Source of the DNA: Minisyncoccota bacterium
GTDB lineage: Bacteria > Patescibacteriota > Minisyncoccia > Phycocordibacterales > UBA9973
Reading direction: 5' to 3'
DNA length: 64,000 nt
NCBI GenBank assembly: GCA_036405895.1
Contig: DASWWS010000001.1
Coordinates: forward strand, 71,864 to 135,863
A program made the position numbers and the translations under genes. The notes below the pieces were generated by a model. That model saw only the letters and a program-made list of their open reading frames with translations, ran no database searches and had not been told where the DNA came from. Positions 1 through 26,774 of this stretch are shown here, in pieces (position 1 is the first letter of the stretch; each line of letters starts with the position of its first letter).

Positions 1-519
1 GTTTCTGGTATACAGGCTGCATTTATTGGCTTTATTATTGTCGCCCTCTTCCTTATCCTGTGGTATCGATTGCCGGGGTTGGTGGCAGTCTTGGCGCTTG
101 GAATTTATGTAGTGATGACGCTCACCCTCTACAAGCTTATTCCAGTGACACTTACGGCAGCCGGAATTGCAGGCTTCATTATTTCAATCGGTATTGCGGT
201 GGATGCAAATATTCTTATCTTCGAGCGCTTCCGCGAAGAGCGCGCTCGAGGCAAGAAAAATGCCGATGCGCTTGACGACGGTTTTGCGCGGGCATGGCAC
301 TCTATCCGCGACGCAAACATTGCGGCAGTAATCATTGCTGTTATCTTATTCTGGTTTGGATCATCGTTGATCAAGGGATTTGCGCTCACGCTCGGCCTCG
401 GTGTCGTGGTAAGCCTTATCAGTGCAATCACTATTACCAAACTCTTTCTCTCTGCGCTTCCAAAAATGGAGGACAGTCGAATCGGTCGGTTTCTCTTTAG
501 TAGCGGCGTTCGGTCATAA
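1..519 (+). CDS. secD: Protein-export membrane protein SecD, C-terminal part; the 5' end lies outside the window
   Basis: Frame 1 is open from position 1 (VSGIQAAFIGFIIVALFLILWYRLPGLVAV...). The C-terminal TM bundle is typical of SecD. It is immediately followed by secF. Confidence 0.75.
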   Translation, partial: VSGIQAAFIGFIIVALFLILWYRLPGLVAVLALGIYVVMTLTLYKLIPVTLTAAGIAGFIISIGIAVDANILIFERFREERARGKKNADALDDGFARAWHSIRDANIAAVIIAVILFWFGSSLIKGFALTLGLGVVVSLISAITITKLFLSALPKMEDSRIGRFLFSSGVRS

Positions 520-536
520 TCAATTCAGTTTTTATC

Positions 537-1436
537 ATGTTTATCATTCAATACAGAACATTTTTCATTTGGCTCTCAGTTGCACTGTGCACGATTTCAC
601 TCGCTGCGGTTGCAATGTTCGGCCTTCCGCTTGGCATTGATTTCAAGGGGGGATCATCTATTGAGCTTGCGTACAGCACTCCTCGCCCTGAAGTTTCAGT
701 TATTCACTCCGCACTTACTACTGCTGGATATGAAGATGCAGTAGTACAGCCAGTAGGTGACGACAGTATTGTCATTAAAAGCAGCGAACTGAGCGAAGAA
801 GAGCGCGCGGCAATTGTAGAAGCAGTGGGAACAACTGGCAGCGTTGAACAGCGTGGATTTACCACTATCGGCCCGTCAGTGGGAGCGGAGCTTAAGAATA
901 AAGCGATTCTTTCAATCGTTCTGGTACTCATCGCAATTATTTTCTTTGTTGCCTATGCATTTCGAAAAGTTTCCGAGCCAGTTTCCTCATGGAAGTTTGG
1001 ACTTGCGGTGATAATTGCTTTGATTCACGATATTATTATTCCGCTTGGCGCATTTGCAATCATTTCGCATATTACCGGTGCCGAGCTCGATACATTGTTT
1101 ATTGTTGCATTGCTTACAACGCTTGCACTCTCAATTTCAGACACGATTGTTGTGTTTGACCGTGTGCGCGAACATTTGGGCAGCGACAAAAAACAGCCGT
1201 TTCCCGAGCTTGTAGGAGAGAGTCTTAGAGAAACATTTGGGCGCTCTATCAATACATCCTTGATGGTGTTGGTGATGATTGTTGCGCTTGCAGTGTTTGG
1301 TCCTGCAAGTACACAGCTCTTCGCAACCATTCTCGCTATCGGAACATTCTTCGGTATTTACTCTTCAATTTTCTTGGCGAGCCCTATCCTAGTGATGATG
1401 GAGCAGTCTCAAAAGAAGGAAAAAAGCGAAAAATAG
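537..1436 (+). CDS. secF: Protein-export membrane protein SecF
   Basis: 299 aa. N-terminal TM, then periplasmic-type domain (GIDFKGGSSIELAY), then a C-terminal RND-like TM bundle. Classic secD-secF adjacency. Confidence 0.85.
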   Translation: MFIIQYRTFFIWLSVALCTISLAAVAMFGLPLGIDFKGGSSIELAYSTPRPEVSVIHSALTTAGYEDAVVQPVGDDSIVIKSSELSEEERAAIVEAVGTTGSVEQRGFTTIGPSVGAELKNKAILSIVLVLIAIIFFVAYAFRKVSEPVSSWKFGLAVIIALIHDIIIPLGAFAIISHITGAELDTLFIVALLTTLALSISDTIVVFDRVREHLGSDKKQPFPELVGESLRETFGRSINTSLMVLVMIVALAVFGPASTQLFATILAIGTFFGIYSSIFLASPILVMMEQSQKKEKSEK

Positions 1437-3015: not shown

Positions 3016-3537
3016 ATGAAAAACCGCGGATTCACTTTAATCGAACTCCTTGTCGTTATTGCAGTTATTGGCATTCTTGCATCAGTGGTGATGGCAAGTT
3101 TAAACAGTGCTCGAGTGAAAGCCCGAAACGCGCGAAGGACAAGCGATATAAAACAACTATCGAATGCATTTCATCTAGGGCTTGATGGAACCGGGTCACT
3201 TCCAAGCAGTAATGGCACGTGGGCATGCGTCAGTGCAACGTGTTATGACGGATGGAGCGTACAAGCCCCTGTTGCTGCAGTCGATACCTATCTCGCACCA
3301 TATCTTCCTACAAAGCCATCGGACCCAGTGGGAGGGTCCCGCGGATATGGCGGGTATTTATATCTTAGTGCTTGGGTAGGGAGCGTTCGCTATAACGGAC
3401 TCACCTATCCTGCAGGAGCATACCTTTATTGGAATGTTGAGATGCCTGCAACAGAAAGTTCATGCGCTCCAGGTGGAATTTTGAGCTTTGGCACAAGCGG
3501 AACCTATGCCTCTTGTATGCTCCAACTTAATACATAG
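3016..3537 (+). CDS. Type IV pilin-like protein (prepilin-type N-terminal cleavage/methylation domain), paralog 1
   Basis: MKNRGFTLIELLVVIAVIGILASVVMASLNSAR class III signal. Conserved Cys pair (WACVSATCY) and YLAPYLPxKPSDPVGGSRGYGGYLY block shared with the paralogs at 3793 and 11711. Confidence 0.8.
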   Translation: MKNRGFTLIELLVVIAVIGILASVVMASLNSARVKARNARRTSDIKQLSNAFHLGLDGTGSLPSSNGTWACVSATCYDGWSVQAPVAAVDTYLAPYLPTKPSDPVGGSRGYGGYLYLSAWVGSVRYNGLTYPAGAYLYWNVEMPATESSCAPGGILSFGTSGTYASCMLQLNT

Positions 3538-3574: not shown

Positions 3575-3661
3575 GGAGGATTCGCATAGCGGTCTAGTGC
3601 ACCATGTTGGAAACGTGGCAGGGTAGTAATGCCCTCGGGAGTTCGAATCTCCCATCCTCCG
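3575..3661 (+). tRNA. tRNA-Ser (anticodon GGA), type II with long variable arm
   Basis: Folded by hand. Acceptor GGAGGAT/ATCCTCC; D-stem GCAT/GTGC; anticodon stem CCATG/CGTGG with loop TTGGAAA (anticodon GGA); long variable arm CAGGGTAGTAATGCCCTCG; T-arm GGGAG-TTCGAAT-CTCCC; discriminator G. CCA is not encoded. Confidence 0.75.
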
Positions 3662-3792
3662 CAAAAATAGGAAGTCATCAAAGATGACGACCATATTTTT
3701 GCGCAGTGCATTATAAGGAGCCTTAACGACTATATAATGCCTCCGCAAAGCCTGAGCGATTCGAATCCCGTACCTTCTGTTATAATAAGGTA

Positions 3793-4314
3793 ATGAAAAA
3801 CCGCGGGTTTACCCTCATTGAACTTTTGGTAGTCATCGCGGTGATCGGCATTTTGGCAAGTGTTGTGATGGCAAGTTTAAACTCTGCGAGAGTGAAGGCC
3901 CGTAATGCTCGCCGAAGCAGCGACATCAAGCAGCTCTACAATGCCTTTCAGCTTGGTCTTGATACTACAGGAGCGCTTCCTAATAATGGAGCAGCATGGT
4001 CATGTGTGAGCGCAACGTGCTATGAAGGGTGGAGTGGTAACACAGCGCACGCAACAGTGGATGCATATCTTGCACCGTATCTTCCCAGCAAGCCGTCCGA
4101 CCCAGTTGGCGGAAGTCGGGGGCATGGAGGATATCTTTATAATGTTGCATGGCCCGGGAGTGTTGCATATGACGGCTACACATTTCCTGCAGGATCATAT
4201 ATCTACTGGCTCCCTGAAGCTCCGCTCGGGCCCAACTCATGCGCACCAGGGCGATTGTTGGCAGTTGCTTCGGGTGGTAACTACGCAGCATGCATGCTCC
4301 AGCTAGATCGCTAA
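3793..4314 (+). CDS. Type IV pilin-like protein, paralog 2 (tandem to 3016-3537)
   Basis: The first ~50 aa are near-identical to paralog 1. The C-terminal domain is divergent but keeps the same Cys positions. Confidence 0.8.
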   Translation: MKNRGFTLIELLVVIAVIGILASVVMASLNSARVKARNARRSSDIKQLYNAFQLGLDTTGALPNNGAAWSCVSATCYEGWSGNTAHATVDAYLAPYLPSKPSDPVGGSRGHGGYLYNVAWPGSVAYDGYTFPAGSYIYWLPEAPLGPNSCAPGRLLAVASGGNYAACMLQLDR

Positions 4315-4392: not shown

Positions 4393-7305
4393 ATGCAATA
4401 CCACTTTTTTAAAAAACTTTTTTATGCACTGAGTATTCTCGCGATAGTATTTTCCGCAACTTCGCCTGTTGTTTTTGCGGCTCCGGGCGTACCAAACATT
4501 GTCAACTATCAAGGAAGGCTTACTGATAATGCAGGCAGACTTCTTGGTGGAAGCGGCACCAATTATTATTTTCGTTTTTCATTGTGGACTACTCCTACGG
4601 TAGGAGGCGGAAGCAAGCTGTGGCCTGCTGGCCAGCCGGGCACGGTAACTACAAACGTTGTCGATGGGGTGTTTAATGTAAACATTGGCGACACCGTAAA
4701 CGGCTATCCTGATGCGCTCGATTACAATTTCAACGATAGTGATGCGGTGTACCTACAAATCGAAGTATCAAGCAACGGATCTTCATTTGAAACACTTGGT
4801 CCTCGCCAGCGCATCGTTTCGAGTGGGTACGCGATTAATGCGCAGACGGTCGCTGGTCTTGCTCCCGGAACTAGTGCAAACAATATCCTCACGCTCGGCG
4901 CAGACGGAGAGATAGTGCTTTCAAGCACTGGCGTTTCAACGCTTGGGGATATTGCTGCGGGAGTCATTTCAGCCGGTACATGGAATGGGTCTGCTATTGA
5001 AGACACATATTTTGTGAAGACAGGAGATTGGACGGGGTTGTTTGACGGAAACGAGGGAAGCTATTATTTGGACGCAAACAATCTCACAAACTTTGATACA
5101 CGCATTGCAACCGCAGTCGCAAGCCTCACCACCGACGACATCGCAGAGGGCGACAACAATTTTTATTTCAGCAACACGCTTGCGCGCGGAGCGCTTTCGG
5201 CGGGGAGTGGTATAACGTATGACAACACGAGTGGCGTCATTTCAAACAGTGGAGCGCTTTCATTCAATACGCGAACAGGGGACATCACGCTTGTTTCCGG
5301 CGACGTGACGGACGCGCTCGGCTTTGCGCCAATGAACCCATCAGGAACGACGGCGCAGTATTTCCGGGGAAACGGCACGCTTGCAACATTTCCAACAACA
5401 GTGTCATCGTTTACTAACGATAGCGGGTTTATAACAGGCAACCAAACGATTACTCTTTCAGGAGATATTTCAGGGTCGGGCACCACCGCAATCACTACTG
5501 CCATAGGTGCAGGGAAGGTGACCAATACCATGCTGGCAGGCTCTATTGCAGCATCAAAACTTGTTGGTACTGATATTGTCACTGTTGGGACAATCGGGGC
5601 GGGTACATGGAATGGCACAGTAATTACTCCTGCATATGGTGGAACAGGAGTGAGCACTATTACGGGAATCGTAAAAGGAAACGGTACCTCGGCATTTACG
5701 GCTGCAGTTGCCGGTACAGACTATGAAGTCCCTTTGACATTTTCGACCGGGCTCACGCGCTCTACAAATACAATAACAATTGATAACACTGTGGTGACCC
5801 TGACAGGGAGCCAGGCACTTTCGAATAAGACTGGGAATATTTCACAGTGGACCAACGATGTCGGATATGCGACAGGGGGCGGAACTGCTTCTGGAACAAA
5901 TACCGGAGACATTACGCTTGGAACAATTGGTTCATCTCCTAACACAAGCGGCGCAAGCCTGGTAGGGCAAGTACTGACCTTGCAGCCCGCAGATGCAACG
6001 CGCGGAGGAGTGTTGACGGCAACGGCACAGGAGATTTTAGGAGAAAAAAAATTCCTCAATCGAATCGTCATTGAAAAGTCAGTCGACTCGTCTTTTATTG
6101 CAAACTCTACAACCGGGCGCTCGGTGGCAGTGGTGTCTGGCGCATTGAAGTCATCGTTTCTTTTTGATAACGGCGGGCCTTTCTCAATTCAAACCAATAC
6201 AAAAGCAAATGTTAACAACGGAACGCCGAGCGGTGTTTCACTTCTTGAGCTCAGTGCCACAGGGGATATGTCAATCGGTACGACTACTGCAGCTGACCAG
6301 CCGCGCCTCGATGTTCTTGTAGCAACTGCAAGTATTACCACTGCAAGCCGTACTGTTATACGCGGACGCAACGCTGGCTCGTCATTTGTCACTTCAGGAC
6401 AAGCAAAGACAAACTATATCGCCGAGTTTATCAATACTGCCACTCGAAGTACCGGTGCAAACAATCTTACCAATGTGGCGCTCTATGCTTCTGCAAGCGG
6501 GGCACAGGTAAACTACGCGGGTATTTTTGCGGCAGGGAATGTGGGTATTGGGGATGTGACCCCGGACTACACGCTCGACGTGAAGGGGACAATTTGTCAG
6601 GACACTGATTCAGACGAAACCTGTGACGGGTCGGTTACTTCTGATGCGCGATTAAAAACAAATATCGAAACTATTCCTTCGGCCCTTGAAAAAATCAGAC
6701 AGCTTCGAGGGGTGTACTTTGATTGGGACGAAACGAACAGCCATACGGCATTTCTTGGACGCGGGACTCGGCAGGTAGGAGTAATCGCGCAGGAAATCGA
6801 AGCGGTATTTCCTTCGCTTATTTATCGAGACAGCAGCGGGTATCGAATGGTCGACTATCAAAAACTCACCGGGCCGTTGATTGAGGCGGTAAAAGAGCTT
6901 GATATACAGGTCCAAGCAATTCCTGTATATGAAGACGAAACATTCACAGAAAAAATTGCTGACTTTTTGCGAGGTATTGCCGAGCGCGGAGAAGCGATTA
7001 TCGATACGGTCCGCGCAAAGAAATTGTGCGCAGAAGACGTGTGCATCAACCGCGACCAGCTCCAAGAGATGATTGAGTACATCAACAACCAACAAGAACA
7101 GTCTTCCGGAGGATCTTCATCGAATCCTCCAGTAGATGAAGAAATTCCGCCAGGCGATGCAGAGCCTGAAGGAGATACTGTGCCGGAAGGGGGAGAAGAT
7201 ACTCCGCCTGCTGAAGAAGAGCTGGTACTGGAAGAAACACCCGAACCCGAACCTGTTCCCGAAGAAAGTCCTGAACCAGAACCTGAATCACCTCCAGTCG
7301 AATAA
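4393..7305 (+). CDS. Secreted tail-fibre-like surface protein with a C-terminal intramolecular chaperone auto-processing domain (peptidase S74-like) and an acidic Pro/Glu-rich tail
   Basis: Signal peptide. N-terminal IVNYQGRLTD...LW...GVFNVNIG motif. Long Gly/Thr/Ser-rich beta-type repeats. TSDARLKTNIETIPSALEKIRQLRGVYFDWDE...VGVIAQEIEAVFPSLI...GYRMVDYQKLTGPLIEAVKEL matches the S74 chaperone-of-endosialidase signature. The last ~70 aa are PE-rich. Confidence 0.75.
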   Translation: MQYHFFKKLFYALSILAIVFSATSPVVFAAPGVPNIVNYQGRLTDNAGRLLGGSGTNYYFRFSLWTTPTVGGGSKLWPAGQPGTVTTNVVDGVFNVNIGDTVNGYPDALDYNFNDSDAVYLQIEVSSNGSSFETLGPRQRIVSSGYAINAQTVAGLAPGTSANNILTLGADGEIVLSSTGVSTLGDIAAGVISAGTWNGSAIEDTYFVKTGDWTGLFDGNEGSYYLDANNLTNFDTRIATAVASLTTDDIAEGDNNFYFSNTLARGALSAGSGITYDNTSGVISNSGALSFNTRTGDITLVSGDVTDALGFAPMNPSGTTAQYFRGNGTLATFPTTVSSFTNDSGFITGNQTITLSGDISGSGTTAITTAIGAGKVTNTMLAGSIAASKLVGTDIVTVGTIGAGTWNGTVITPAYGGTGVSTITGIVKGNGTSAFTAAVAGTDYEVPLTFSTGLTRSTNTITIDNTVVTLTGSQALSNKTGNISQWTNDVGYATGGGTASGTNTGDITLGTIGSSPNTSGASLVGQVLTLQPADATRGGVLTATAQEILGEKKFLNRIVIEKSVDSSFIANSTTGRSVAVVSGALKSSFLFDNGGPFSIQTNTKANVNNGTPSGVSLLELSATGDMSIGTTTAADQPRLDVLVATASITTASRTVIRGRNAGSSFVTSGQAKTNYIAEFINTATRSTGANNLTNVALYASASGAQVNYAGIFAAGNVGIGDVTPDYTLDVKGTICQDTDSDETCDGSVTSDARLKTNIETIPSALEKIRQLRGVYFDWDETNSHTAFLGRGTRQVGVIAQEIEAVFPSLIYRDSSGYRMVDYQKLTGPLIEAVKELDIQVQAIPVYEDETFTEKIADFLRGIAERGEAIIDTVRAKKLCAEDVCINRDQLQEMIEYINNQQEQSSGGSSSNPPVDEEIPPGDAEPEGDTVPEGGEDTPPAEEELVLEETPEPEPVPEESPEPEPESPPVE

Positions 7306-8612
7306 TGACTTCCTTTCCGTATAAAAAAAGTATCATAGCGTTTGCCTTAAGCATATCTCTTGGAGTACTGATGCATCCCGAGAATGGCTTTGGTATTACG
7401 CCAACCTCTTCAAGTTACACTGTACATAACCCGGTCATTACCAGTGGCTTTGCCTCAATGGCATCCGGAAATTTTGGATTAGGCCAGTCATTTGGTCAAT
7501 CGGTTATCGGCAAGTCGCTTTCATCATCATTTGCAGTGTGGAGCGGATTTCAATATTTTGCCAGTGCGGGAACATTCACCCTTTCCGGGGTGGGGGGATC
7601 AAGTCAGGCGCAACTTTCTTGGACAATACCCGAGGTATTTAACGGAGCAGTTATTTCCGGGTATGAAGTGGGAATCGGGACAACATCGGGCTCGTATACG
7701 TTTCAGGATGTTGGGAATGTCACTTCGTTTACAAAAACAGGGCTCAATAACAATACGCCGTACTATTTTTTAGTGAAAGCGCACACTGCTTCAGGTGCAC
7801 CATTGTCGTTTTCCAATGAAGTGAGTATTACTCCAACAGGAACTATTACCCCGCCAGGCGGCGGTGGTGGTGGAGGGGGAGGAGGCAGTTCAACGGGGAC
7901 GGGGAGCGTTATTGTTTCAGGAATCGCATATCCGGGAGCGACAGTCGTTATTCTTAAAGACGGCAAGATTGAAACACAAACCACTGCCGACCCCGGAGGC
8001 GCATTTAACGTGCTTCTCTCAAGCCTTCGCGCAACCCACTATGCAATCGGCGTGTATGCCGAGGATACTGCAGGAAGAAAATCTCCTCCATACAGTTTTC
8101 CGGTCACGCTTGCAGACCAAGTCACAATTACTATTGCCAACGTATTTCTTGCGCCAACTATCGGCGTTGATAAGTCGGTCGTTGCGCAAGGAGAGCCGAT
8201 TGGAATTTTCGGTTCTTCCGCACCTAATACGCAGGTGAATATTTATGTGCACTCCGCGCAAGAGTTTGTGGAGAAGGTGACTTCAACTACCACCGGTGCG
8301 TGGTTTAAGCAGTTCGACACCACCTTTCTTGAAATAGGAGACCATAGTACATTTTCTCGCGCTGTGCTTTCTGACCAAGTAACGAATACCAGTGTGACAG
8401 TACCGTTCGTTGTGGGTACAACATCAGTTCCGATAGAGACGCTCGGTCGGAGCGACTTGAACAACGACGGGCGCGTGAACATTACCGACTTTTCCATGCT
8501 CTTGTACTATTGGCAAGGAACCCCGCCGCCCGGTTCAAAGGTGGATATTATAAAAGACGGCATTGTTAACAGTACAGACCTCTCAATCATGCTCTATGAT
8601 TGGACTGGATAA
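7305..8612 (+). CDS. Secreted FN3-domain protein with a poly-Gly linker and a C-terminal dockerin (two Ca-binding repeats)
   Basis: The start overlaps the previous stop (TAATG). FN3-like block (GYEVGIGTTSGSYTFQDVGNVTSFTKTGLNNNTPYYFLVKAHT). G10 linker. C-terminal DLNNDGRVNITDFSMLLYYW ... DIIKDGIVNSTDLSIMLYDW matches DxNxDGxVNxxD twice. Confidence 0.7.
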   Translation: MTSFPYKKSIIAFALSISLGVLMHPENGFGITPTSSSYTVHNPVITSGFASMASGNFGLGQSFGQSVIGKSLSSSFAVWSGFQYFASAGTFTLSGVGGSSQAQLSWTIPEVFNGAVISGYEVGIGTTSGSYTFQDVGNVTSFTKTGLNNNTPYYFLVKAHTASGAPLSFSNEVSITPTGTITPPGGGGGGGGGGSSTGTGSVIVSGIAYPGATVVILKDGKIETQTTADPGGAFNVLLSSLRATHYAIGVYAEDTAGRKSPPYSFPVTLADQVTITIANVFLAPTIGVDKSVVAQGEPIGIFGSSAPNTQVNIYVHSAQEFVEKVTSTTTGAWFKQFDTTFLEIGDHSTFSRAVLSDQVTNTSVTVPFVVGTTSVPIETLGRSDLNNDGRVNITDFSMLLYYWQGTPPPGSKVDIIKDGIVNSTDLSIMLYDWTG

Positions 8613-8616
8613 AATT

Positions 8617-9729
8617 ATGAAAATACTTTTGCAAAAAATTATCAGTACAATTATTTTTAGTGTATCTCTCTGCGTTCTTTTCGCAACGCCAAGCAGTGCT
8701 GCCACCCTTTCAGCAAGTGCGGCCCAACAGCAAGTGTATGCGGGAGATACGTTTGCAGTGGAATGGTTTCTCGATACAGAAAATCAATCAATCAATTTGA
8801 TTGACGCAGTGCTAACGTATTCATCAGAAACACTAGAAGTCATTGAACTCTCAACGGGTGTTTCCTCGTTTACGCTGTGGCCAAACCAGCCATATGTTCT
8901 CCGTGCTGGAACTATTAGCCTTACCGGAGGTATCCCTGCCGGAATTACAGGCGCGCGCGTGCGAGTACTGCGCACCGTATTTCGCGCAACTGCTCCCGGA
9001 ACTGCGACCATTGCCACCGCAGCTCCTTCACAGGTACTGCTTAACGACGGAATTGCAAGTGCACGGCCTCTTGGTGTGACACCTGTGGTTTTTGAAGTAC
9101 TGCCGGGCGACAGCGCGCCGTACAGCATCTACTCAACCACGCATCCGCTGGAAAACGTCTGGTACAAAAATACGCATGTGGAAATTGATTTTACACAAAT
9201 AAAGGGAGAAGAATACAGCTACAGCTTCAGCACAAATGCAGAACTTATTCCCGACGCTGTGCCGGACAAAGCAAGGACGCCGATTGTGTACGACAATATG
9301 CCAGACGGCGTGTATTACTTTACCCTGGCAAGCCGCTCTGGTGGCGGAGCGTGGCACGAAGCGCGCGTTTTTCGCGTACAGATCGATACCCAAGCTCCCG
9401 AATTTATTGATGCAAACATAGCGACAGATGAATCTCTGTTTGAAGGAAAAGCATTTGCAACATTTGCGGCAGTGGATAAGACTTCCGGTATTGAAAAGTA
9501 TGCAATAAAGAGCGGATGGTTTGGAACGTATAAGACTGCGACAACACCGTTTGAACTTCGCCGGCCGATTGTGGGAGATACGACATACATCCGTGCAATT
9601 GATAGGGCAGGAAATGTACAAACAACTGCGATCAATTTCCCTGGATACAGTAGACCGTTGTATGCGTATGTTGTTATACTATTGATACTAATAATTGTCG
9701 CTCTACGAATTCGACGAATACATTCATGA
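8617..9729 (+). CDS. Membrane-anchored cohesin-like domain protein
   Basis: Signal peptide (start moved to the ATG at 8617; the alternative upstream start is 8563). The N-terminal ~150 aa follow the cohesin-like pattern (ATLSASAAQQQVYAGDTFAVEWFLDTENQSINLIDAVLTYSSETLEVIELSTG...GITGARVRVLRTVFRATAPGTATIA...VLLNDG). Second beta-rich domain. C-terminal TM helix. Confidence 0.55.
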   Translation: MKILLQKIISTIIFSVSLCVLFATPSSAATLSASAAQQQVYAGDTFAVEWFLDTENQSINLIDAVLTYSSETLEVIELSTGVSSFTLWPNQPYVLRAGTISLTGGIPAGITGARVRVLRTVFRATAPGTATIATAAPSQVLLNDGIASARPLGVTPVVFEVLPGDSAPYSIYSTTHPLENVWYKNTHVEIDFTQIKGEEYSYSFSTNAELIPDAVPDKARTPIVYDNMPDGVYYFTLASRSGGGAWHEARVFRVQIDTQAPEFIDANIATDESLFEGKAFATFAAVDKTSGIEKYAIKSGWFGTYKTATTPFELRRPIVGDTTYIRAIDRAGNVQTTAINFPGYSRPLYAYVVILLILIIVALRIRRIHS

Positions 9730-10511
9730 AAAAAATTACGTTCTCTTTTTTGATAGTTCTTATTGCATGGTTTTGTGCAAGCGCTCCTGCAACAGCAGCT
9801 ACGCTTGTTGTGACTCCTCCGAGCGCGAGTGTTACCGAGGGTTCGACATTCTCCGTGAGCGTGCGAACTGATACGCAAGGACAGTCAGTCAATGTTGCCG
9901 AAGCGACTGTCGGGTTTTCAACAGACACCCTTGAAATAGTGAGCGTCAGTCCCGGCGCTACGTTTACCCTTCAGACCCCTGGCTCGCCAAGTAAAACCGC
10001 ATCAACGGCGTACTTTTCTGCGGGGATTCCTTCGGGCTACAACGGCTCGGCCGGGATGCTGGGCCGTATTACCTTCCGCGCAAAAAAGGCAGGGAAAGCA
10101 ACAATCAGCGTAACGTCCGGGAAAGTACTATTGAATGATGGAAATGCAACAAATGCGCTCAATGGAACTTCTGGTTCCGTAATCACTATCACGCCAAAAC
10201 CGGCTGTTGAACCGACAACTCCTATTAAAGAACCAGAAACCGCTGTTGTACCTCCTTCAATAGAAACACAGCCAGTAGTGGAAATGCCGATTGTTGTTAC
10301 TCCAACGCCTGTTCCAGAACCTGCGACCACGACTATTAGAACAAAAGATCTCTTCACTCTTATTTACATACTGATCGGCATTATCTTTATCCTTCTCGGG
10401 GTAATAATCGCACTCATTGCCGTGATTGCTCATAGAAAACCACTACCTCCCGTTGTACGAAAACCTCGCGCGAAAAAAGCAAAAGAAGAAGTACGGCTTT
10501 CGGATATCTAA
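9726..10511 (+). CDS. Membrane-anchored cohesin-like domain protein (paralog of 8617-9729)
   Basis: ATGA overlap with the upstream gene. Signal peptide. The domain is homologous to the previous gene's (ATLVVTPPSASVTEGSTFSVSVRTDTQGQSVNVAEATVGFSTDTLEIVSVSPG ... KVLLNDG). Pro/Thr linker, a C-terminal TM helix and a basic tail. Confidence 0.55.
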   Translation: MKKITFSFLIVLIAWFCASAPATAATLVVTPPSASVTEGSTFSVSVRTDTQGQSVNVAEATVGFSTDTLEIVSVSPGATFTLQTPGSPSKTASTAYFSAGIPSGYNGSAGMLGRITFRAKKAGKATISVTSGKVLLNDGNATNALNGTSGSVITITPKPAVEPTTPIKEPETAVVPPSIETQPVVEMPIVVTPTPVPEPATTTIRTKDLFTLIYILIGIIFILLGVIIALIAVIAHRKPLPPVVRKPRAKKAKEEVRLSDI

Positions 10512-10512
10512 T

Positions 10513-11001
10513 ATGAAGAACCGAGGATTCACTCTTATCGAACTTTTGGTGGTAATCGCAATCATCGGTATCTTGGCGTCAGTTGTTTTAGCTTCTCTTA
10601 ACAGTGCAAGGAAAAAAGCGCAAGACACAAAAATCAGAGCAGAGCTAAAGCAGTTAGCAACTGCCCTTGAATTCTATTTTGATAAATACGGTACCTATGT
10701 TGTTGCTGCTAGTGGGTGGAATGACTGTGGATGCGGGTATGTGACAAGCGATGCTGGACCAAGTGGAAGGACGATAGTACAAGCTCTTGTTGCAGAAGGA
10801 TTCATGTCAACAGATTTTGATGAGCCGGGCGGCATCAATTATATGCTCTATAATTGCGGTACCGAGCGTTATGCGCTCTCTGCAACCTTAAACAACCCCA
10901 CCGCACAGGATATTGCGTATGCTCAAACGACTTGTAATGCAACCGGAGGAAACGGCACCTATTCCCATTATGGGAAAAACTTTTCCATAGAAAAGCTCTA
11001 G
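10513..11001 (+). CDS. Type IV pilin-like protein, paralog 3
   Basis: MKNRGFTLIELLVVIAIIGILASVVLASLNSARKKAQDTK... Start moved to the ATG at 10513, two bases after the previous stop. Confidence 0.8.
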   Translation: MKNRGFTLIELLVVIAIIGILASVVLASLNSARKKAQDTKIRAELKQLATALEFYFDKYGTYVVAASGWNDCGCGYVTSDAGPSGRTIVQALVAEGFMSTDFDEPGGINYMLYNCGTERYALSATLNNPTAQDIAYAQTTCNATGGNGTYSHYGKNFSIEKL

Positions 11002-11023
11002 AAAACTGCGCTATACTATATAT

Positions 11024-11704
11024 ATGAAAAAAACAATCACTTGGATTATTGTACTTTTGGCTATTGGGGCGGGAGCATTTTTGTACTTGACTCGACCGGT
11101 AAAGGTAGAGGATAGCAGCACTACAGCGGGAGTTGAATCCGAGCTTTCTGCGGACAATAAAAAGGGAGAAACACTCTATCGAATCAACAAAGAGCAGTCG
11201 ACCGCAAAGTTCACGATTAAAGAAGATCTTCGCGGTGAGCCATTTACTGTTGTAGGAACAACCAATGATATAAGCGGGGATGTTGTTCTTAAGACGGAAG
11301 GAAAGGCAGAGCTTACGATTGGAACAATTCTTATCGACGTTCGCACCTTCAAAACTGACAATGCAAATCGGGACGGCGCAATCAATCGCCTCATTGTGCA
11401 GACCGGTACAGAGGGTCATGAATATGCAGTACTTACGAACACTTCTGTTTCCGGTCTTCCTGAAACGATTACTGTAGGCACCCCATTTACGTTTGAGGTA
11501 ACAGGAGACCTAATGCTTGCAGGAATAAAGAAACCGGCAACCTTTGCAGTAACTGCAACACAGAACGAGGGTTCATTGTCGGGAACATTGAGCTCAACCT
11601 TGAAGCGCTCTGACTACAAACTCGTTATTCCGAACATTCCGTTTGTTGCAAATGTGTCTGACGACTTTGTTGTCAGCGCGGACTTTGTTGCAGTAGCGCA
11701 ATAA
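11024..11704 (+). CDS. Secreted YceI-like domain protein
   Basis: Signal/TM. The core ...KFTIKEDLRGEPFTVVGTTNDISGDVVL...IDVRTFKTDNANRDGAINRLIV... resembles the YceI family. Confidence 0.55.
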   Translation: MKKTITWIIVLLAIGAGAFLYLTRPVKVEDSSTTAGVESELSADNKKGETLYRINKEQSTAKFTIKEDLRGEPFTVVGTTNDISGDVVLKTEGKAELTIGTILIDVRTFKTDNANRDGAINRLIVQTGTEGHEYAVLTNTSVSGLPETITVGTPFTFEVTGDLMLAGIKKPATFAVTATQNEGSLSGTLSSTLKRSDYKLVIPNIPFVANVSDDFVVSADFVAVAQ

Positions 11705-11710
11705 TACATA

Positions 11711-12232
11711 ATGAAAAACCGAGGCTTCACCTTAATAGAGCTCCTTGTTGTTATTGCAGTGATTGGCATTTTAGCATCTGTTGTTTTAGCGAGCTTGAAT
11801 AGTGCTCGCGTTAAGGCTCGTAATGTTCGTCGCAATGCGGACATCCGGGAATTGCAAAGTGCCTTTGCTTTGGCAGCAAGCGATACAGGATCGATGCCGA
11901 GCTCTGCCGGAAACTTTGAGGGGTGGGCATGCGTCAGTGCTACATGCTATCAAGGATGGAGTATATATAGTGCCAACAGCACAGTGGATACCTTTATCGC
12001 AACAACGATGCCGTCAAAACCTATTGACCCTCCGGGCGGTCGCGGATACGGCGGATATTTGTACCATAGTTCATCATTGGGAGCCACTAACTATGATGGA
12101 AGTGTTACCACTGCAGGCCCCGTATTACACTGGCTGTTGGAGCCACCCTACAAAGTTGGGATGTGTGGTGCCGGAAATGCAAACGCTGTAAATTCAAACT
12201 ATGTCGCCTGTGTTATTTCGATAGGAAGATAA
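11711..12232 (+). CDS. Type IV pilin-like protein, paralog 4
   Basis: The same N-terminus plus the WACVSATCYQGWS and PPGGRGYGGYLY blocks shared with paralogs 1 and 2. Confidence 0.8.
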   Translation: MKNRGFTLIELLVVIAVIGILASVVLASLNSARVKARNVRRNADIRELQSAFALAASDTGSMPSSAGNFEGWACVSATCYQGWSIYSANSTVDTFIATTMPSKPIDPPGGRGYGGYLYHSSSLGATNYDGSVTTAGPVLHWLLEPPYKVGMCGAGNANAVNSNYVACVISIGR

Positions 12233-12233
12233 T

Positions 12234-12268
12234 AAAAAAACCCACCGTTTGGCGGGTTTTTTTATTAT
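12234..12268. terminator. Bidirectional intrinsic terminator (A-run, GC hairpin CCCACCG/GGCGGG, T-run) between convergent genes
   Basis: aaaaaaacccaccgtttggcgggttttttt. Confidence 0.7.
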
Positions 12269-13377
12269 TGGGTTTTGAAAGTAATAACAACAAGTTCAGG
12301 CGAATTGAATGTGCGGAATGGGGGACCGAATGTTCCAACTCCGCTCGTGGTCAAAACCTGCATGGTATTGAAGAGATTGAGTCCGTAATAATATGCTCCG
12401 TATATTGGGCGGACGACATAGGTCATTGGCCAAAACTGTCCGTTGTGGGTATGACCCGAAACCATAAGGTTCACTCCGGCATTTTCAGCTTCAGCCAGAG
12501 AAGTAGGCGGGTGATTGATAAGGATGGCAGTTTTATTTTTGTCGAGAGAAAGATTCTCTAAAGCACTGTTTGCAGCAGTCTTACTCTCTGCATTGGTACC
12601 ATAATAGGTAAGGCCCGCAATCTGTACGCCCTTATGTTCAACCATTCTGTTATCAAGCACGGTTACGCCTGCATTTCGCACGGAGTTTACAAACATTTCA
12701 TAATCGCCGTATGTTTCATGATTTCCTGGTGCGTAAAATACTGGAATTTTTTCTGCAAGGCGCTTCCAGGAAACAGTAATGGGAGCAGTTTCAACTCTCG
12801 GTCCGTCATAAAAGTCTCCGGCATGAAGGACGAGATCGGGGTTGAGCGTGAGAATGTTATTGATAACTTTATCGGAAAACTTGGCATGGTTTACTAGCCC
12901 GAAGTGCGTGTCAGAAACAAGCACTGCACGCACACCATTCCACTCTTGCGGCAGGTTCGCAAGTGTTACCGAATATTCGACCGTTACGAAAGAACGGGAC
13001 TGAATAAGGCCTGTAATGCCAAGTAGTAGTGAGATGCTTAAAAAAGTAATTGGGATAAATAGTGGAAGTGCGGTTTTTGCAAGAGAAAAGCCAAGCATTA
13101 CCACCGAAAGGGCAAGTCCTCCAAGAAAGAGATAAAACCCAAAGCCCGCAATAATATTTATTGCACTATAGAGGGTTGGATGAAGCGATTGAGCGCTTCG
13201 GCCCATTGTCATGCCAAGAATAAAGCCCCCAAGGACAAGGAGGCCAGACGCCATTGCAGCTTTTGACCAGGCAGGAGAAAGGCGAAATGCTACAGCGTAC
13301 ATTTTCCCTGAGAGAATAATAAGGCCGATAAATCCGGCGAATACCAAGATACCGAGGAGCATTTTTGTTGAAATCAT
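12265..13377 (-). CDS. Membrane-anchored metallophosphoesterase (calcineurin-like)
   Basis: N-terminal TM helices followed by the GDxHG / GDxxD / GNHE / GHxH motif series (VLVSDTHFG, HAGDFYDGP, APGNHE, VSGHTHNGQ). Start trimmed to MISTKML (ATG at 13377) because the ORF-track extension overlaps the divergent helicase gene. Confidence 0.75.
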   Translation of the reverse strand: MISTKMLLGILVFAGFIGLIILSGKMYAVAFRLSPAWSKAAMASGLLVLGGFILGMTMGRSAQSLHPTLYSAINIIAGFGFYLFLGGLALSVVMLGFSLAKTALPLFIPITFLSISLLLGITGLIQSRSFVTVEYSVTLANLPQEWNGVRAVLVSDTHFGLVNHAKFSDKVINNILTLNPDLVLHAGDFYDGPRVETAPITVSWKRLAEKIPVFYAPGNHETYGDYEMFVNSVRNAGVTVLDNRMVEHKGVQIAGLTYYGTNAESKTAANSALENLSLDKNKTAILINHPPTSLAEAENAGVNLMVSGHTHNGQFWPMTYVVRPIYGAYYYGLNLFNTMQVLTTSGVGTFGPPFRTFNSPELVVITFKTQ

Positions 13378-13429
13378 GTGTGTCAGTATAGCAGGAAAAG
13401 GATGCGAAACAGCGTGATACAATGAAGCT

Positions 13430-16384
13430 ATGGATACCTTTGGAGAGGCGTATAAGACCTTAAACACCAAGCAAAAGCAGGCGGTGGATGCTATTGAAGG
13501 GCCGGTCATGGTGATTGCGGGCCCGGGTACCGGCAAGACACAGGTTTTGAGCCTTCGCATTGCGAACATTTTAACCAAGACCGATACTCCGCCTGACGGC
13601 ATACTGTGTCTGACATTTACCAATGCCGGCGTCAAAGCGATGCGCGAACGCTTGATGCGCTATATCGGACCCGCGGCCCTTCGTGTGAAGGTAAACACTT
13701 TTCATAGTTTCGCACTTTCTTTAATCGAAGAGTTTTATCACGCACTCGATTATGATATGGTGCCGATGCTTTTGGAAGACACCTCAACGGTGGCACTGTT
13801 TGACGAATTGCTTCACATGCGCGAGTGGCACCATGTGCGCCCCCGCTCGAACCCTTCGATGTACTTTCGCGATCTCAAATCCCTCATTTCAACTCTCAAG
13901 CGCGACCGTATTACCCCCGCTGCTTTTATTGAAAGCATAGAGCGCGAAATGGAGACACTGCGAAATGATCCTGCAAGCATCTCTTCTCGGGGAGAGACAA
14001 AGGGGCAGATAAAAAAAGACGTTGAAAAGAAATTGGAGAGCTTTGAGAGAAGTCTTGAAGCCGGAGCTTTTTATGCACTGTACGAAGAAGTGAAAAACGA
14101 ACGCGGGCTGATTGACTACAATGATGTGTTGGAGCATTTGGTAAAGCTTGTGGAAGTATCAGACGATGTGCGAGACACGATTCGGGAGCGATACTTGTAT
14201 GTATTGGTTGATGAGCACCAGGATTCAAGTGGTATTCAAAACGAATTCTTGCGGTTGGTATGGGCCGATACGGAACAACCAAACCTCTTTGTGGTGGGGG
14301 ATGATAGGCAGCTGATTTATGGATTTGGCGGTGCATCGCTTTCGCACTTTGAAGCATTCACGCGCGGCTTCGGTGAAGTTGCGCTTATTACCCTTACCGA
14401 GAACTACCGCTCCACACAAACAGTATTGGATATGGCAGAGGCGCTCTTGCAGAGTGATATGGCCGAAGGCAAGCTTACGGGAAATACGCTTGAAGCTCAC
14501 TCTCTGAAGCTGGTTGAAGCAAGCTATCCTCGTGACGAAATTATTCTCGCCGGCCTTTTCATGCAGGAAAAAATAGCAGCAGGGACAGACAGTAATGACT
14601 GTGCAATCTTGGTGCCCAAAAACCGCCAGGTAAAAAGTGCAATGCAAACGCTTCGCGATATGGGATTGCCGGTTGCTGCGAGTACAACATTGCAGTTGTT
14701 TGAGCTACCCGAAGCGCAGTCCTTGTTGAACGTGCTTCGCGTGGTTGCGAATCCGTTTGACAGTGTTTCACTGGTCCATTCGCTCCTTGACCCGCTCTCG
14801 AGCATCCCACCCCTGATTGCACACCGCTTTCTTTCTGCTCACAAAAAACCAACACTTGAAACACTCCTTCAGTCTGAAGATGAACCAGTACACAAATGGG
14901 CGATGAGCATTTCTGTATGGCTTTCTGTTGCACAGACAACAGACGCATACGGGCTTATTCAGCACATTGCCGAAGACTGTTTTCTTGTGGCAGAAGCGGG
15001 GGACGACGTAGTACGTCGGCGTGTTGAAATTGTCCGTACATTTTTGCATCTTGCGCTTTCGCAAAGCGAGCGTGGGACAAAGGTAACTGTCAGCGACTTT
15101 CTTTCATTTATTGCGCGCTTGGAAGAGTACAACGAAGACATTCCGCTTGCGGTGTTTGGTGCAGGCCATGGAATAAAAGTCCTCACATTACACGGCTCAA
15201 AAGGGCTTGAATTTGATGCGGTATGGATTGCGCATATGGACGAGCGCTCACTGATGGGAAGCAAGCGTCAGGCTTTTGCACTGCCTGAGGACTTATTAAA
15301 AGAAGAAGCGCTCCACGACGAATCGGTAAAAAAGCGCGAGCTCTATGTTGCAATCACTCGCGCAAAGCGGTTTTGCACTATTTCTTCTGCACGCCATAGT
15401 TATAGTGGGGCAGACCAAGTGCTTGCAAGCGTAGTGTCTGCACTACCAAGCGAACTCTTTGAAAAAAGCACAGCCGAAGAATCAGAGGCTCTTATTCTCA
15501 GTACTGCCCCGCGCTTGTACATCGACGCAGTACCGCCTGAAAAAACCGAAACGCATGATGTATTGCAAGAATTGGTGCGGGAAGAATATGCAAAACGCCG
15601 CGTATCGGTGACGATGCTCAATAACTTTTTTGAATGCACCTGGAAGTGGTATTTTAGAAACCTTCTGCAATTGCCGGAGCCAGAAAACGAGTCTCTCCAT
15701 GTTGGTACGGTAGTGCACGGCGCGATTGAGGCAGTGCTTAAAAACGGCGTTGTTGGTCTTGAAGAAACAATAGAGACGCTCGCGCTTCGCGAGGCACGCT
15801 ATGACGAAGTGCATGCAAGCCGGCTGGTTGCTCAAGCAACGCCGATTGTGAATTCATGGATTAAAACCACGCTTCCGGATATTGTAGCGCCGTATAGTAC
15901 AGAGCGTGCACTTTCGTATGTTGACCCCGACTTCGCGCATCTTACGTTGTTTGGAAAAATCGACTTGGTGGAAGAAATCATTACCGACGAAGTGCGCGTG
16001 ACAGACTGGAAAACAGGGAGTACAAAAACAAAGGCCGACATTGAAAAAGTCGATGAAGAGGGGCGAATGTCAGCGTATCTCCGCCAGCTCGCGATGTATT
16101 CGTATCTGTTGCAAGGCATGACGCGCGACAATACAAGTGTGTCAGAGTCCCGATTGGTCTTTCTTGAAGCAAAGGCGGGGGATAAGAACGCCATTGTATC
16201 TCGGCGCATCGCAGGAGAGGAGGTTGCAAAATTGCGCCAGGATATCCGGGATTATGATGAATTGGCAAAAACAGGAGCGTGGATGGCGCGTCCGTGCCGC
16301 GCGAAACTCTATAGAGAGGGGGACGTGTGCGAATACTGCGCTATGGCCCATAAATACGGGGTTTTACAGCGTATTAGCGAGTAA
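13430..16384 (+). CDS. UvrD/PcrA-family DNA helicase fused to a C-terminal PD-(D/E)XK nuclease with a Cys4 (Cas4/AddB-like Fe-S) cluster
   Basis: Walker A (AGPGTGKT). UvrD motifs (DEHQDSS, VVGDDRQLIYGF, TENYRS). C-terminal FFECTW (Cys1) ... IDLVEE...DWKTG (D/E-K) ... YLRQLAMYSYL ... CRAKLYREGDVCEYCAMA (Cys2-4). Confidence 0.8.
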   Translation: MDTFGEAYKTLNTKQKQAVDAIEGPVMVIAGPGTGKTQVLSLRIANILTKTDTPPDGILCLTFTNAGVKAMRERLMRYIGPAALRVKVNTFHSFALSLIEEFYHALDYDMVPMLLEDTSTVALFDELLHMREWHHVRPRSNPSMYFRDLKSLISTLKRDRITPAAFIESIEREMETLRNDPASISSRGETKGQIKKDVEKKLESFERSLEAGAFYALYEEVKNERGLIDYNDVLEHLVKLVEVSDDVRDTIRERYLYVLVDEHQDSSGIQNEFLRLVWADTEQPNLFVVGDDRQLIYGFGGASLSHFEAFTRGFGEVALITLTENYRSTQTVLDMAEALLQSDMAEGKLTGNTLEAHSLKLVEASYPRDEIILAGLFMQEKIAAGTDSNDCAILVPKNRQVKSAMQTLRDMGLPVAASTTLQLFELPEAQSLLNVLRVVANPFDSVSLVHSLLDPLSSIPPLIAHRFLSAHKKPTLETLLQSEDEPVHKWAMSISVWLSVAQTTDAYGLIQHIAEDCFLVAEAGDDVVRRRVEIVRTFLHLALSQSERGTKVTVSDFLSFIARLEEYNEDIPLAVFGAGHGIKVLTLHGSKGLEFDAVWIAHMDERSLMGSKRQAFALPEDLLKEEALHDESVKKRELYVAITRAKRFCTISSARHSYSGADQVLASVVSALPSELFEKSTAEESEALILSTAPRLYIDAVPPEKTETHDVLQELVREEYAKRRVSVTMLNNFFECTWKWYFRNLLQLPEPENESLHVGTVVHGAIEAVLKNGVVGLEETIETLALREARYDEVHASRLVAQATPIVNSWIKTTLPDIVAPYSTERALSYVDPDFAHLTLFGKIDLVEEIITDEVRVTDWKTGSTKTKADIEKVDEEGRMSAYLRQLAMYSYLLQGMTRDNTSVSESRLVFLEAKAGDKNAIVSRRIAGEEVAKLRQDIRDYDELAKTGAWMARPCRAKLYREGDVCEYCAMAHKYGVLQRISE

Positions 16385-25595: not shown

Positions 25596-26774
25596 ATGCA
25601 AGAACACTTTCCTCATTCAGATAGCCACTCTCTCGAATCGCGAATAGATGCAATTGTTGAACGACAGCTGCGTGAAATCGAACTTCAGCAAGAAGGGGTG
25701 CAGCCGGAGCAATTGGCAGTATATCGAGAAAAAGCAAACGAGTTCAAAAAAAGATTACCCGAAATGATGGATGATGAAGCTAAAGAATATTTAGCGGGCG
25801 TAAATGATGAAGAGTTCGGAGCATTAGTATTGCCAGCCCTTGCACGGCAGCATGAAAGAGGAAAAGAACATGTTCCGTTGACGAAAATCCAACTTCAAAA
25901 CATACTTTTATACCGAAAGGTATACGGGTATGGACATCCTGACTTGGAAAAACGAATCGAGCAGCATCCCATGCCTACAGCTGCAGAACTATTGCTTGGC
26001 TGCTACGCCGAACAACTTGAAGAACAGACTCGTGATGCTGTATTACTGATGAGAAAAAAAGGATATGATACTGTTCAATCTGGTTTTCACGATACATTGA
26101 AAGGTTCGCAATTTTTTGATATTTATGAAGCGAATCAAACAATGGTACCCCAAGAAATCATTGATGAAATGAAGAGTCGGTTTGGAGTGGATGTAACCAG
26201 TAAACGTCACAAGTCATCCGAGAGGACGGATATTGATCTCGTACCTACGGGGTTCAAAGATATTGCGGACTGGAAGGAAACCCTTAATCACTTCGCTGCA
26301 ATTATGCCGACGAAAGAAGAACAAGGTTTGGGTCAATACGGTATGGGTGTTGATTTTATCTATGATGCTATAAAGACATATAAGAAGGAGGATATATTGG
26401 AAACTGCTGAAACAGATCAGCAGCGTGTGTTAGTTGAGCGTTTATATGAATGCAAAAATAAGGAAGAGGTGATTTTGTTGTTACATAAAGAATCTGATTC
26501 GGCTGAACAAAGAGTGGTAGAGGAAAGACTAAAAGAAGAAGCTAAAAAAGATTTCTCGCCGGATACTGTTGAAGCTATTAATCAAATAATAAGTGAATTC
26601 ATCTCAGCATCTTTTGTTATCGATAAAGAAGATATTGAAGCCGGGTTGCAGATAATCCGGGATCAGTGCACTCACATTGGAGAAATTTATACTGACGATG
26701 CGTCTCATGGCAAGCTTTTCGCAATAATTAATCAAGCGATTCAGTATCTTGAAAACCGCTTGGAGAAAAAATAA
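25596..26774 (+). CDS. Hypothetical acidic alpha-helical protein (392 aa)
   Basis: ORF 4 nt after smc. No GTPase or other recognisable motif, so not ftsY. AT-richer than its neighbours. Confidence 0.5.
   Translation: MQEHFPHSDSHSLESRIDAIVERQLREIELQQEGVQPEQLAVYREKANEFKKRLPEMMDDEAKEYLAGVNDEEFGALVLPALARQHERGKEHVPLTKIQLQNILLYRKVYGYGHPDLEKRIEQHPMPTAAELLLGCYAEQLEEQTRDAVLLMRKKGYDTVQSGFHDTLKGSQFFDIYEANQTMVPQEIIDEMKSRFGVDVTSKRHKSSERTDIDLVPTGFKDIADWKETLNHFAAIMPTKEEQGLGQYGMGVDFIYDAIKTYKKEDILETAETDQQRVLVERLYECKNKEEVILLLHKESDSAEQRVVEERLKEEAKKDFSPDTVEAINQIISEFISASFVIDKEDIEAGLQIIRDQCTHIGEIYTDDASHGKLFAIINQAIQYLENRLEKK

Follow-up and report, generated by a model that had tools for sequence, protein, structure and literature searches.

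Cohesin and type I dockerin modules form the anchoring system of the C. thermocellum cellulosome, and they also occur outside cellulose degradation, for example in A. fulgidus (structure 2xdh) and in the GH84C (2w1n) and toxin complexes of C. perfringens, where they link enzymes or stand as isolated pairs. The amylosome and the mucinolysome, both multi-enzyme systems, have repurposed the pair for another surface task. A different class of surface element, the MAT fibres of the predator Bdellovibrio bacteriovorus, combines a signal peptide and a conserved beta-rich N-domain of ~130 aa with a mosaic stalk and a swappable tip, and a subset of these fibres ends in an S74 domain with an SDxxxK motif (PMC10769870). 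Both kinds of element, the second as a putative remote relative, meet in the locus described here, which occupies positions 4393-12232 of a 64-kb stretch (64,000 nucleotides of contig DASWWS010000001.1, assembly GCA_036405895.1, hereafter the window, to which the analysis of this genome was confined) from a Minisyncoccota bacterium of the Patescibacteria. Seven genes, G1 to G7, encode a secreted mosaic fibre protein (G1), a secreted dockerin protein (G2), two cohesin proteins predicted to be membrane-anchored (G3 and G4), a type IV pilin-like protein (G5), a YceI-like protein (G6) and a second pilin (G7). The Patescibacteria, for which candidate phyla radiation (CPR) is another name, account for a very large part of bacterial diversity. 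To our knowledge, all members cultivated so far live attached to other cells, and beyond type IV pili we know of little on how their surface is organised. Based on the analysis presented here, G2-G3-G4 is read as a non-enzymatic, membrane-tethered dockerin-cohesin surface stalk to which a fibre adhesin was added in this lineage, a reading to which we give a probability of roughly 0.6.

To place the locus among its relatives, homologues of G1, G2 and G3 were gathered, and 80 loci from species-representative genomes were fetched via the G2 alignment and scanned with profiles built from the domains of the window itself. G2 relatives define at least 380 candidate loci in this genome set. The lineages named among the 80 loci are Doudna-, Uhr-, Nomura-, Kaiser-, Harrison-, Nealson-, Buchanan-, Giovannoni-, Yanofsky-, Magasanik-, Taylor-, Colwell- and Jorgensenbacteria as well as Minisyncoccia, and the locus is also present in Candidatus Microsyncoccus archaeolyticus PMX.50. 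Several other metagenome-derived records with this operon (loci L011, L013, L017, L027, L032, L054 and L066, and many 'Saccharibacteria' records) bear the labels 'uncultured Gammaproteobacteria' or 'Candidatus Saccharibacteria', which look unreliable and on which no conclusion here rests. In all 78 loci with room downstream, one to four cohesin genes come immediately behind the dockerin gene and share its strand (two genes in 58 loci, three in 17; median gap 3.5 nt), an arrangement that exceeds chance. The first cohesin protein always carries a G3-type C-terminal domain and is C-terminally membrane-anchored in 95% of the loci, while at least one anchored cohesin is present in 76 of the 78. Because a cohesin gene follows the dockerin gene in every case, while the fibre, pilin and YceI genes are sporadic, the conserved unit is G2-G3-G4, referred to below as the triad. 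G1, the pilins and YceI are lineage-specific additions, accreted at different evolutionary depths. Such strong conservation of the triad looks more like that of a general envelope component than of a host-specific adhesin.

A preliminary description of this DNA, made from the sequence alone, had listed seven same-strand genes, and open reading frame (ORF) and sequence reading bore out all of its coordinates and junctions and supported the translational coupling that it proposed. G1 and G2 have a single base in common (7305, within TAATG), the TAA stop of G2 is followed by AATT and the ATG of G3 at 8617, G3 and G4 overlap in ATGA at 9726-9729, and one T separates the TAA of G4 from the ATG of G5 at 10513, followed by gaps of 22 nt between G5 and G6 and 6 nt between G6 and G7. 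The start of G3 is an ATG internal to a longer TTG ORF. Most of the gene assignments agree as well: the S74-type fibre G1 matches Peptidase_S74 at 60.2 bits (cutoff 22), the C-terminal double dockerin of G2 matches Dockerin_1 at 34.8 bits (cutoff 22.9), and the N_methyl and PF04264 matches fit the order pilin, YceI, pilin for G5, G6 and G7. G3 and G4 had been called anchored and cohesin-like. C-terminal helices are found in both and G4 passes the cohesin hidden Markov model (HMM), but G3 misses it, a failure which the description itself had named as counting against the assignment; G3 is instead recognised as a cohesin by paralogy and fold.

In G2, a signal helix, a conserved N-terminal segment, a fibronectin type III (FN3) domain, two immunoglobulin (Ig)-like domains and a C-terminal type I dockerin follow one another, with the fn3, Big_6 and Dockerin_1 matches all above the Pfam cutoff. 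The Dockerin_1 (PF00404) match spans aa 383-429 and covers two tandem repeats of ~22 residues, in each of which a helix comes after an EF-hand-like loop of 12 residues (D-x-N/D-x-D-G-...-D); the loops are DLNNDGRVNITD and DIIKDGIVNSTD. Four residues, D384, D388, D395 and D425, do not vary across 48 homologues, and N386 and D414 scarcely do; in the second loop, G2 has Ile at position 3, where the family consensus (DLNxDGRVNLxDFSILLY..W / DINKDGxVDLxDFSIMLYDWTG) has Asn, and the module always stands at the extreme C-terminus. AlphaFold2 (AF2) predicts the two dockerin helices at aa 393-401 and 423-431, and a sequence search with the dockerin matches the solved type I dockerins 1daq, 4fl4, 2y3n, 2vn5 and 1ohz. 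Neither Pfam nor Foldseek detected a catalytic domain in G2; with the AF2 model as query (predicted local distance difference test, pLDDT, of 79 overall), Foldseek returned FN3/Ig arrays only and no enzyme. G2 is the sole dockerin protein found in the window, and G3 and G4 are its only cohesin proteins.

G2 as a whole is unusually conserved, with a length of about 425-445 aa and 40-58% identity across class-level lineages. The N-segment stands out, since its majority-residue fraction among the 48 homologues (0.65) is close to that of the dockerin (0.68), compared to 0.48-0.54 for the Ig domains. Its consensus reads ..FTVxDPVI..G..SSSS.NFGLGQS..Q.AIGKSTS.SFQLWSGFQYY., and in the AF2 model aa 24-84 have a pLDDT below 50. 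Being as conserved as the dockerin yet unfolded in the model, this segment suggests an interaction element that folds together with a partner or as an oligomer, and it may thus be a fold-on-binding or oligomerisation element. In the Gly-rich linker between the FN3 and Ig-like domains of G2 (window 7833-7898), mixed GGN codons specify a run of ten Gly; among the homologues, the longest such run has between 0 and 11 residues.

G3 and G4 both open with a signal-peptide-like helix, and hydropathy predicts that each is anchored in the membrane by a C-terminal transmembrane (TM) helix. The cohesin domain of G4 reaches 30.6 bits (cutoff 24.1), and G3 aa 25-148 is 39% identical to it (E 7e-20). Within the G3 family, 10 of 55 members match PF00963 (E<=0.01). 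Searches of Protein Data Bank (PDB) sequences with G3 and G4 singly, and with a G3-family profile, gave chance-level matches only, so a fold comparison was needed for G3. The AF2 model of G3, made with 55 homologues, has a pLDDT of 93.6 and shows nine strands within aa 29-154. Its top Foldseek matches are the solved cohesins 2w1n, 6kgc, 2jh2, 1g1k and 2xdh (target-normalised TM score 0.64-0.80, probability 1.00), including C. acetobutylicum CohA2, C. cellulolyticum 1g1k and A. fulgidus 2xdh, with the cohesin-FN3 tandem of C. perfringens (2w1n) as the best. According to this model, the N-terminal domain of G3 has a cohesin fold.

Next, dockerin columns were compared with cohesin columns by average-product-corrected (APC) mutual information over 81 operons (the window and loci L001-L085). 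The two strongest pairs link L400 and L430 of G2, each with G105 on strand β6 of G3. The two leucines are symmetry mates, each at position 17 of its dockerin repeat, and their aligned counterpart in C. thermocellum is the Lys of the 'KR' pair; dockerin positions 10, 11, 17, 18 and 22 have been described as putative recognition residues (PMC3413522). Residue sizes are exchanged between the partners: where position 17 is Leu, Met or Ile, the first cohesin has Gly (15/15 operons), and where it is Ala, the first cohesin has Ile, Val, Met or Leu (66/66). In the aligned column of the second, G4-type cohesin the same rule holds in 14/14 and 59/63 operons. The other high-scoring cohesin columns lie in strands 3, 5, 6 and 8, and we take the 8-3-6-5 sheet to be the dockerin-binding face in known complexes. 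The maximum for dockerin against cohesin is 0.35, compared to 0.27-0.30 for the controls, in which the G3 C-domain took the place of the cohesin or the G2 Ig domains that of the dockerin. That both repeats change alike is what a dual binding mode, as described for type I dockerins (PMC12484212), would require, and the pattern fits direct binding of this kind. Taken on its own, the predicted pairing of dockerin and cohesin is quite probable. The operons fall into two ancient types, one with Leu/Leu in the dockerin and Gly in the cohesin, the other with Ala/Ala and Ile/Val. These do not obviously track the lineage names, the Leu/Gly type being present in Nealson-, Giovannoni-, Yanofsky- and Doudnabacteria.

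In the arrangement that we propose, G3 and G4 would be exported via Sec as type I membrane proteins and each retained by its single C-terminal TM helix. Both cohesins would be held off the membrane, that of G3 by two Ig-like domains and that of G4 by its Pro/Thr linker of about 55 residues, which could cross the wall. Secreted G2 would plug into either cohesin with its C-terminal dockerin of two symmetric Ca2+-loop/helix repeats, and since this end would be fixed to membrane-anchored proteins, the FN3-Ig-Ig stalk would project outward, presenting the conserved N-segment at its outer end for a putative ligand. The strict operon linkage with the cohesins and the matched covariation suggest that G2 is their cognate ligand. 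The synteny in 78 of 78 loci and the compensatory dockerin/cohesin covariation back the cohesin-dockerin-assembled surface structure of the preliminary description; of the gene order that it had proposed to check in relatives, the G2-G3-G4 part is syntenic, but the pilin and YceI part is not conserved. Since the same operon encodes G1 and pilins, we further propose that the tether is expressed together with host-contact appendages, as which the fibre and the pilins likely serve.

Several observations weigh against this reading. On a neighbour-joining tree of the non-interface domains, the covarying state changes only once, so the covariation, though physically suggestive, represents one coordinated historical event and not statistically independent proof. 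G3 has no PF00963 match at E<=0.1. Second-position cohesin proteins are membrane-anchored in only 40% of the relatives' loci, and the two cohesins may therefore not be equivalent. The distal end of G2 is not universal either, because about 30 related loci (within L052-L085, e.g. L069:8671-9729) carry short forms of 300-350 aa that keep the Ig pair and the dockerin and lack the N-segment and FN3. Finally, G1 has no dockerin, and most triads have no adjoining fibre gene.

The fibre protein G1 would be a trimeric, tail-fibre-like adhesin with a MAT-like base, a swappable tip and an S74 chaperone that cuts itself off at Ser750. The sequence SDARLK at aa 750 corresponds to the S-D-x-x-x-K catalytic motif of S74, as defined for these domains (PMC10769870), and the acidic tail behind the chaperone would leave together with it after self-cleavage at Ser750. 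Of 120 homologues of G1, about 48 resemble it over the first ~155 residues (45-60% identity), the stalk repeats (aa ~330-420) recur in about 75 and the S74 region in about 32, while aa 480-690 are common to the nearest relatives only. Even where both ends are 70-77% identical, relatives differ in the middle and in length (970-1346 aa), which looks like tip swapping. Residues 69-158 match the Bdellovibrio family NF053851 (Bdello_MAT_N) at 22-28 bits (E 1e-4 to 1e-6; curated cutoff 60 bits), and all 26 N-domain homologues from Patescibacteria that were compared match it too (best E 8.6e-11), always below the curated cutoff; we therefore speak of remote homology to MAT_N and not of membership. 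Five other loci of diverse origin (L016, L039, L072, L042 and L034) likewise have a fibre gene with a MAT-like N-domain directly beside the triad, where about 0.4 would be expected by a rough estimate from the density of such genes in the flanks. A functional link between fibre and triad is plausible, though not a general one, and so is a role of G1 in host-cell attachment.

Whether more than the triad belongs to one system depends on the flanking genes. The preliminary description had joined all seven into a single host-attachment apparatus of cohesin-dockerin complex, S74 fibre and type IV pili. The tight same-strand coupling with a terminator only after G7 agrees with this, as does the enrichment of fibre genes beside the triad, and in the close relatives L086 and L087 pilins flank fibre-G2-G3-G4 (in L086 a pilin also precedes the fibre gene). 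However, across Patescibacteria only G2-G3-G4 is conserved: once duplicates are set aside, 3 of the 83 fetched loci have pilins close to the triad, and of the 60 loci with room, 4 have an S74 fibre gene no more than 3 kb upstream of the G2 gene. In L086 and L087, pilin genes come after the G4 orthologue; in L004 and L005 they do not, and there the G4 orthologue is followed directly by the same Metallophos and UvrD genes as are found behind G7 in the window. YceI is restricted to the window's operon, being absent from L086, L087 and L004, and no type IV pilus assembly genes were found in the window. An integrated seven-gene apparatus is thus quite unlikely. The fibre and its neighbours could also be the leftover tail genes of a prophage or tailocin, since G1 matches PHROG tail-fibre and baseplate families and is named 'tail fiber domain-containing protein' by NCBI. 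Yet these matches are confined mainly to aa ~650-860, essentially the S74 region, G2-G4 have no PHROG match, and the locus sits among housekeeping genes at even GC content, with a module that is vertically conserved across the phylum. This explanation was rejected as almost certainly wrong, and the locus is regarded as chromosomal.

Of the readings that keep the triad as the unit, one replaces adhesion by housekeeping: G2 would self-associate via its N-segment into a lattice or sheath, similar to a surface layer (S-layer), which the anchored cohesins pin to the envelope. The unusual conservation and uniform length of G2 would suit such a scaffold, and so would its Ig/FN3 beads, found in many S-layer proteins, and an N-segment predicted to be unfolded as a monomer, as expected of an oligomerisation element; moreover, S-layers have been reported for some Patescibacteria (PMC13293708). 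Short G2 forms without the N-segment argue against it, nor is a lattice the obvious product of a protein of 435 aa whose flexible Gly linkers vary in length, and we consider it fairly unlikely. It is very unlikely that G3 and G4 anchor dockerin-bearing hydrolases encoded elsewhere, with G2 as one ligand among several. The modules are of the same kinds as in the cellulosome, and in L002 and L003, which represent one lineage, another and different ORF with a related dockerin at its end (L002:3-686, L003:3-575) is found some 1.2 kb upstream of the G2 orthologue, separated from it by two small genes. However, each protein here has one cohesin and no carbohydrate-binding module (CBM), S-layer homology (SLH) domain or catalytic domain, there is a single dockerin in the window, and the 1:1 linkage and covariation discussed above point to G2 as the cognate ligand.

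Table 1. Positions of the genes, domains and other features at the locus (nucleotides in the window; residues in the encoded protein)
Feature	Nucleotides	Residues	Strand	Basis or remark
Pilin paralog Pa	3016..3537	173 aa	+	N_methyl motif; context, not core
tRNA-Ser(GGA)	3575..3662		+	ARAGORN; between pilin genes Pa and Pb
Pilin paralog Pb	3793..4314	173 aa	+	N_methyl motif; upstream of G1
G1	4393..7305	970 aa	+	Secreted mosaic fibre, Peptidase_S74
G1 signal peptide		1-29	+	Cleavage ~VFA|A
G1 MAT_N-like N-domain	4480-4917	~30-175	+	NF053851 sub-cutoff match
G1 stalk repeats		~300-450	+	Common to many homologues
G1 tip	5830-6462	~480-690	+	Lineage-unique
G1 S74 chaperone/protease	6640-7107	750-~905	+	PF13884 at aa 750-809
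G1 acidic Pro/Glu-rich tail	7108-7302	906-970	+	Sequence
G2	7305..8612	435 aa	+	Secreted dockerin protein
G2 signal helix		6-22	+	AF2/sequence
G2 N-segment	7374-7568	24-88	+	Conserved, not self-folding in model
G2 FN3		89-178	+	Pfam fn3
G2 Ig-like domains (two)		198-377	+	AF2; Pfam Big_6
G2 type I dockerin	8436-8609	378-435	+	Pfam; ends in WTG
G3	8617..9729	370 aa	+	Divergent cohesin protein, predicted membrane-anchored
G3 cohesin domain	8689-9096	25-160	+	AF2/Foldseek, similarity to G4
G3 spacer, two beta-sandwich (Ig-like) domains		170-340	+	AF2
G3 C-terminal TM helix		~342-370	+	Hydropathy; TM span aa ~345-368; short basic tail
G4	9726..10511	261 aa	+	Cohesin protein, PF00963, predicted membrane-anchored
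G4 cohesin domain	9783-10205	20-160	+	PF00963
G4 Pro/Thr-rich linker		~150-205	+	Roughly 55 residues
G4 TM helix		~204-244	+	Hydropathy; TM span aa ~207-234; then basic cytoplasmic tail (predicted)
G5	10513..11001	162 aa	+	Type IV pilin-like, lineage-specific neighbour
G6	11024..11704	226 aa	+	YceI-like, N-terminal hydrophobic segment
G7	11711..12232	173 aa	+	Type IV pilin paralog
Likely bidirectional intrinsic terminator	~12234..12263		both	A-run, CCCACC-GTTT-GGCGGG hairpin (one mismatch), T-run; read from sequence

The features of the locus are collected in Table 1. Besides G5 and G7, two further pilin paralogs, Pa and Pb, are encoded in front of G1. All four match PF07963, the prepilin cleavage/methylation motif, and G5 and G7 also match TIGR02532 above the cutoff. 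Pa and Pb are 73% identical to each other and 52-57% identical to G7. The YceI match of G6 (PF04264) reaches 66.5 bits against a cutoff of 23.7. The terminator lies between G7 and the convergent Metallophos gene. A pattern scan for promoters and terminators of the window gave output no better than that from shuffled sequence, and its strict patterns overlooked this terminator because the hairpin has a mismatch.

The other genes of the window are housekeeping genes, coding for SecF, LemA, HtpX, a UvrD-type helicase, GyrB, ThrRS, NusB, SMC, ribonucleotide reductase, SecA, DnaE and pyruvate kinase. The Metallophos ORF (12265-13635, minus strand, 456 aa as called) overlaps the start of the divergent UvrD-type helicase gene (13430); since its orthologues have 368-370 aa, the real start probably lies some 260 nt inside the called ORF. 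Two adjacent ORFs may encode further surface proteins, one of 1164 aa (50296-53790) without a Pfam match and one of 1091 aa (53858-57133) that contains a DUF5122 beta-propeller repeat and, at its C-terminus, a peptidoglycan-binding domain. An ORF of 392 aa directly after the SMC gene (25596-26774) has no Pfam match either.

If the tethered-stalk reading holds, the triad, present in hundreds of species, would be one of a small number of phylum-wide surface assemblies whose architecture can be predicted, and would extend cohesin-dockerin biology to a non-enzymatic, membrane-anchored setting. The two operon types (Leu/Gly and Ala/Ile) would amount to a natural specificity experiment, and in cultured relatives the module might serve as a handle for tagging, pull-down and the interpretation of cryo-electron tomography. 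Separately, MAT-like mosaic fibres, known from the predator Bdellovibrio, appear to have remote relatives in Patescibacteria. A bolder version, which we think unlikely, makes the triad a generic plug-in socket, where the N-segment of G2 captures the MAT-like base of interchangeable trimeric fibres like G1. In that case host range would be changed by swapping tips while the anchor stays constant, and there would be a suggestion for what holds the MAT N-domain on the cell surface of Bdellovibrio, a question left open there.

In the searchable literature, whose coverage is incomplete so that a description elsewhere is possible, no relevant paper was found that joins cohesin or dockerin with Patescibacteria, CPR or Parcubacteria, and a 2026 review of the phylum mentions neither module. 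The essential 'dockerin' protein SEML1_0315 of Southlakia (PMC10633639) was considered and set aside, being encoded by a stand-alone gene (927 aa) and not by a G2-G3-G4 operon. As the supplements of that study list no cohesin or dockerin Pfam entries either, its transposon sequencing (Tn-seq) results are not transferable to the triad.

Compared to the systems named at the outset, the fibre and the triad have different counterparts. With the S74 chaperone of phage tailspikes and endosialidases, G1 shares the PF13884 match and the Ser-Asp-x-x-x-Lys motif, but its gene is chromosomal, lies in a housekeeping neighbourhood and has no other phage genes around it. The MAT fibres of B. bacteriovorus resemble the G1 family in their order of signal peptide and beta-rich N-domain, in the mosaic stalk with a swappable tip and, for a subset, in the terminal S74 domain; like Bdellovibrio, the present organism likely lives on other cells. 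They differ in that the N-domain of G1 matches theirs only remotely, that the trimer of G1 is a prediction, that the fibre belongs to a monoderm-type Patescibacterium and that G1 has an extra acidic, Pro-rich tail after the chaperone.

The triad shares with cellulosome anchoring in C. thermocellum both module families, the duplicated, symmetric dockerin with its Ca2+ loops, the jelly-roll fold of the cohesin and a covarying site that coincides with recognition position 17 (PMC3413522). In contrast, no dockerin-bearing enzymes, CBM or SLH/sortase anchor accompany it in the window. Instead of a multi-cohesin scaffoldin there is one cohesin per protein with a C-terminal TM helix, the ligand is a single non-catalytic Ig/FN3 protein from the same operon, and the carrier is a reduced-genome Patescibacterium and not a fibre degrader. 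The modules themselves are a genuine type I dockerin and genuine cohesins, while the defining features of a cellulosome are absent from the window. The amylosome and the mucinolysome offer a precedent for a cohesin-dockerin pair with another surface task, but those are multi-enzyme systems, whereas G2-G3-G4 has no detectable enzyme component. Closest in spirit are the scattered non-cellulosomal pairs, such as those of A. fulgidus and C. perfringens, which likewise work outside cellulose degradation and provide two of the fold matches of G3 (2xdh and the best, 2w1n). Where those pairs link enzymes or occur in isolation, the modules described here form a fixed three-gene operon, predicted to be TM-anchored, that is found throughout the phylum.

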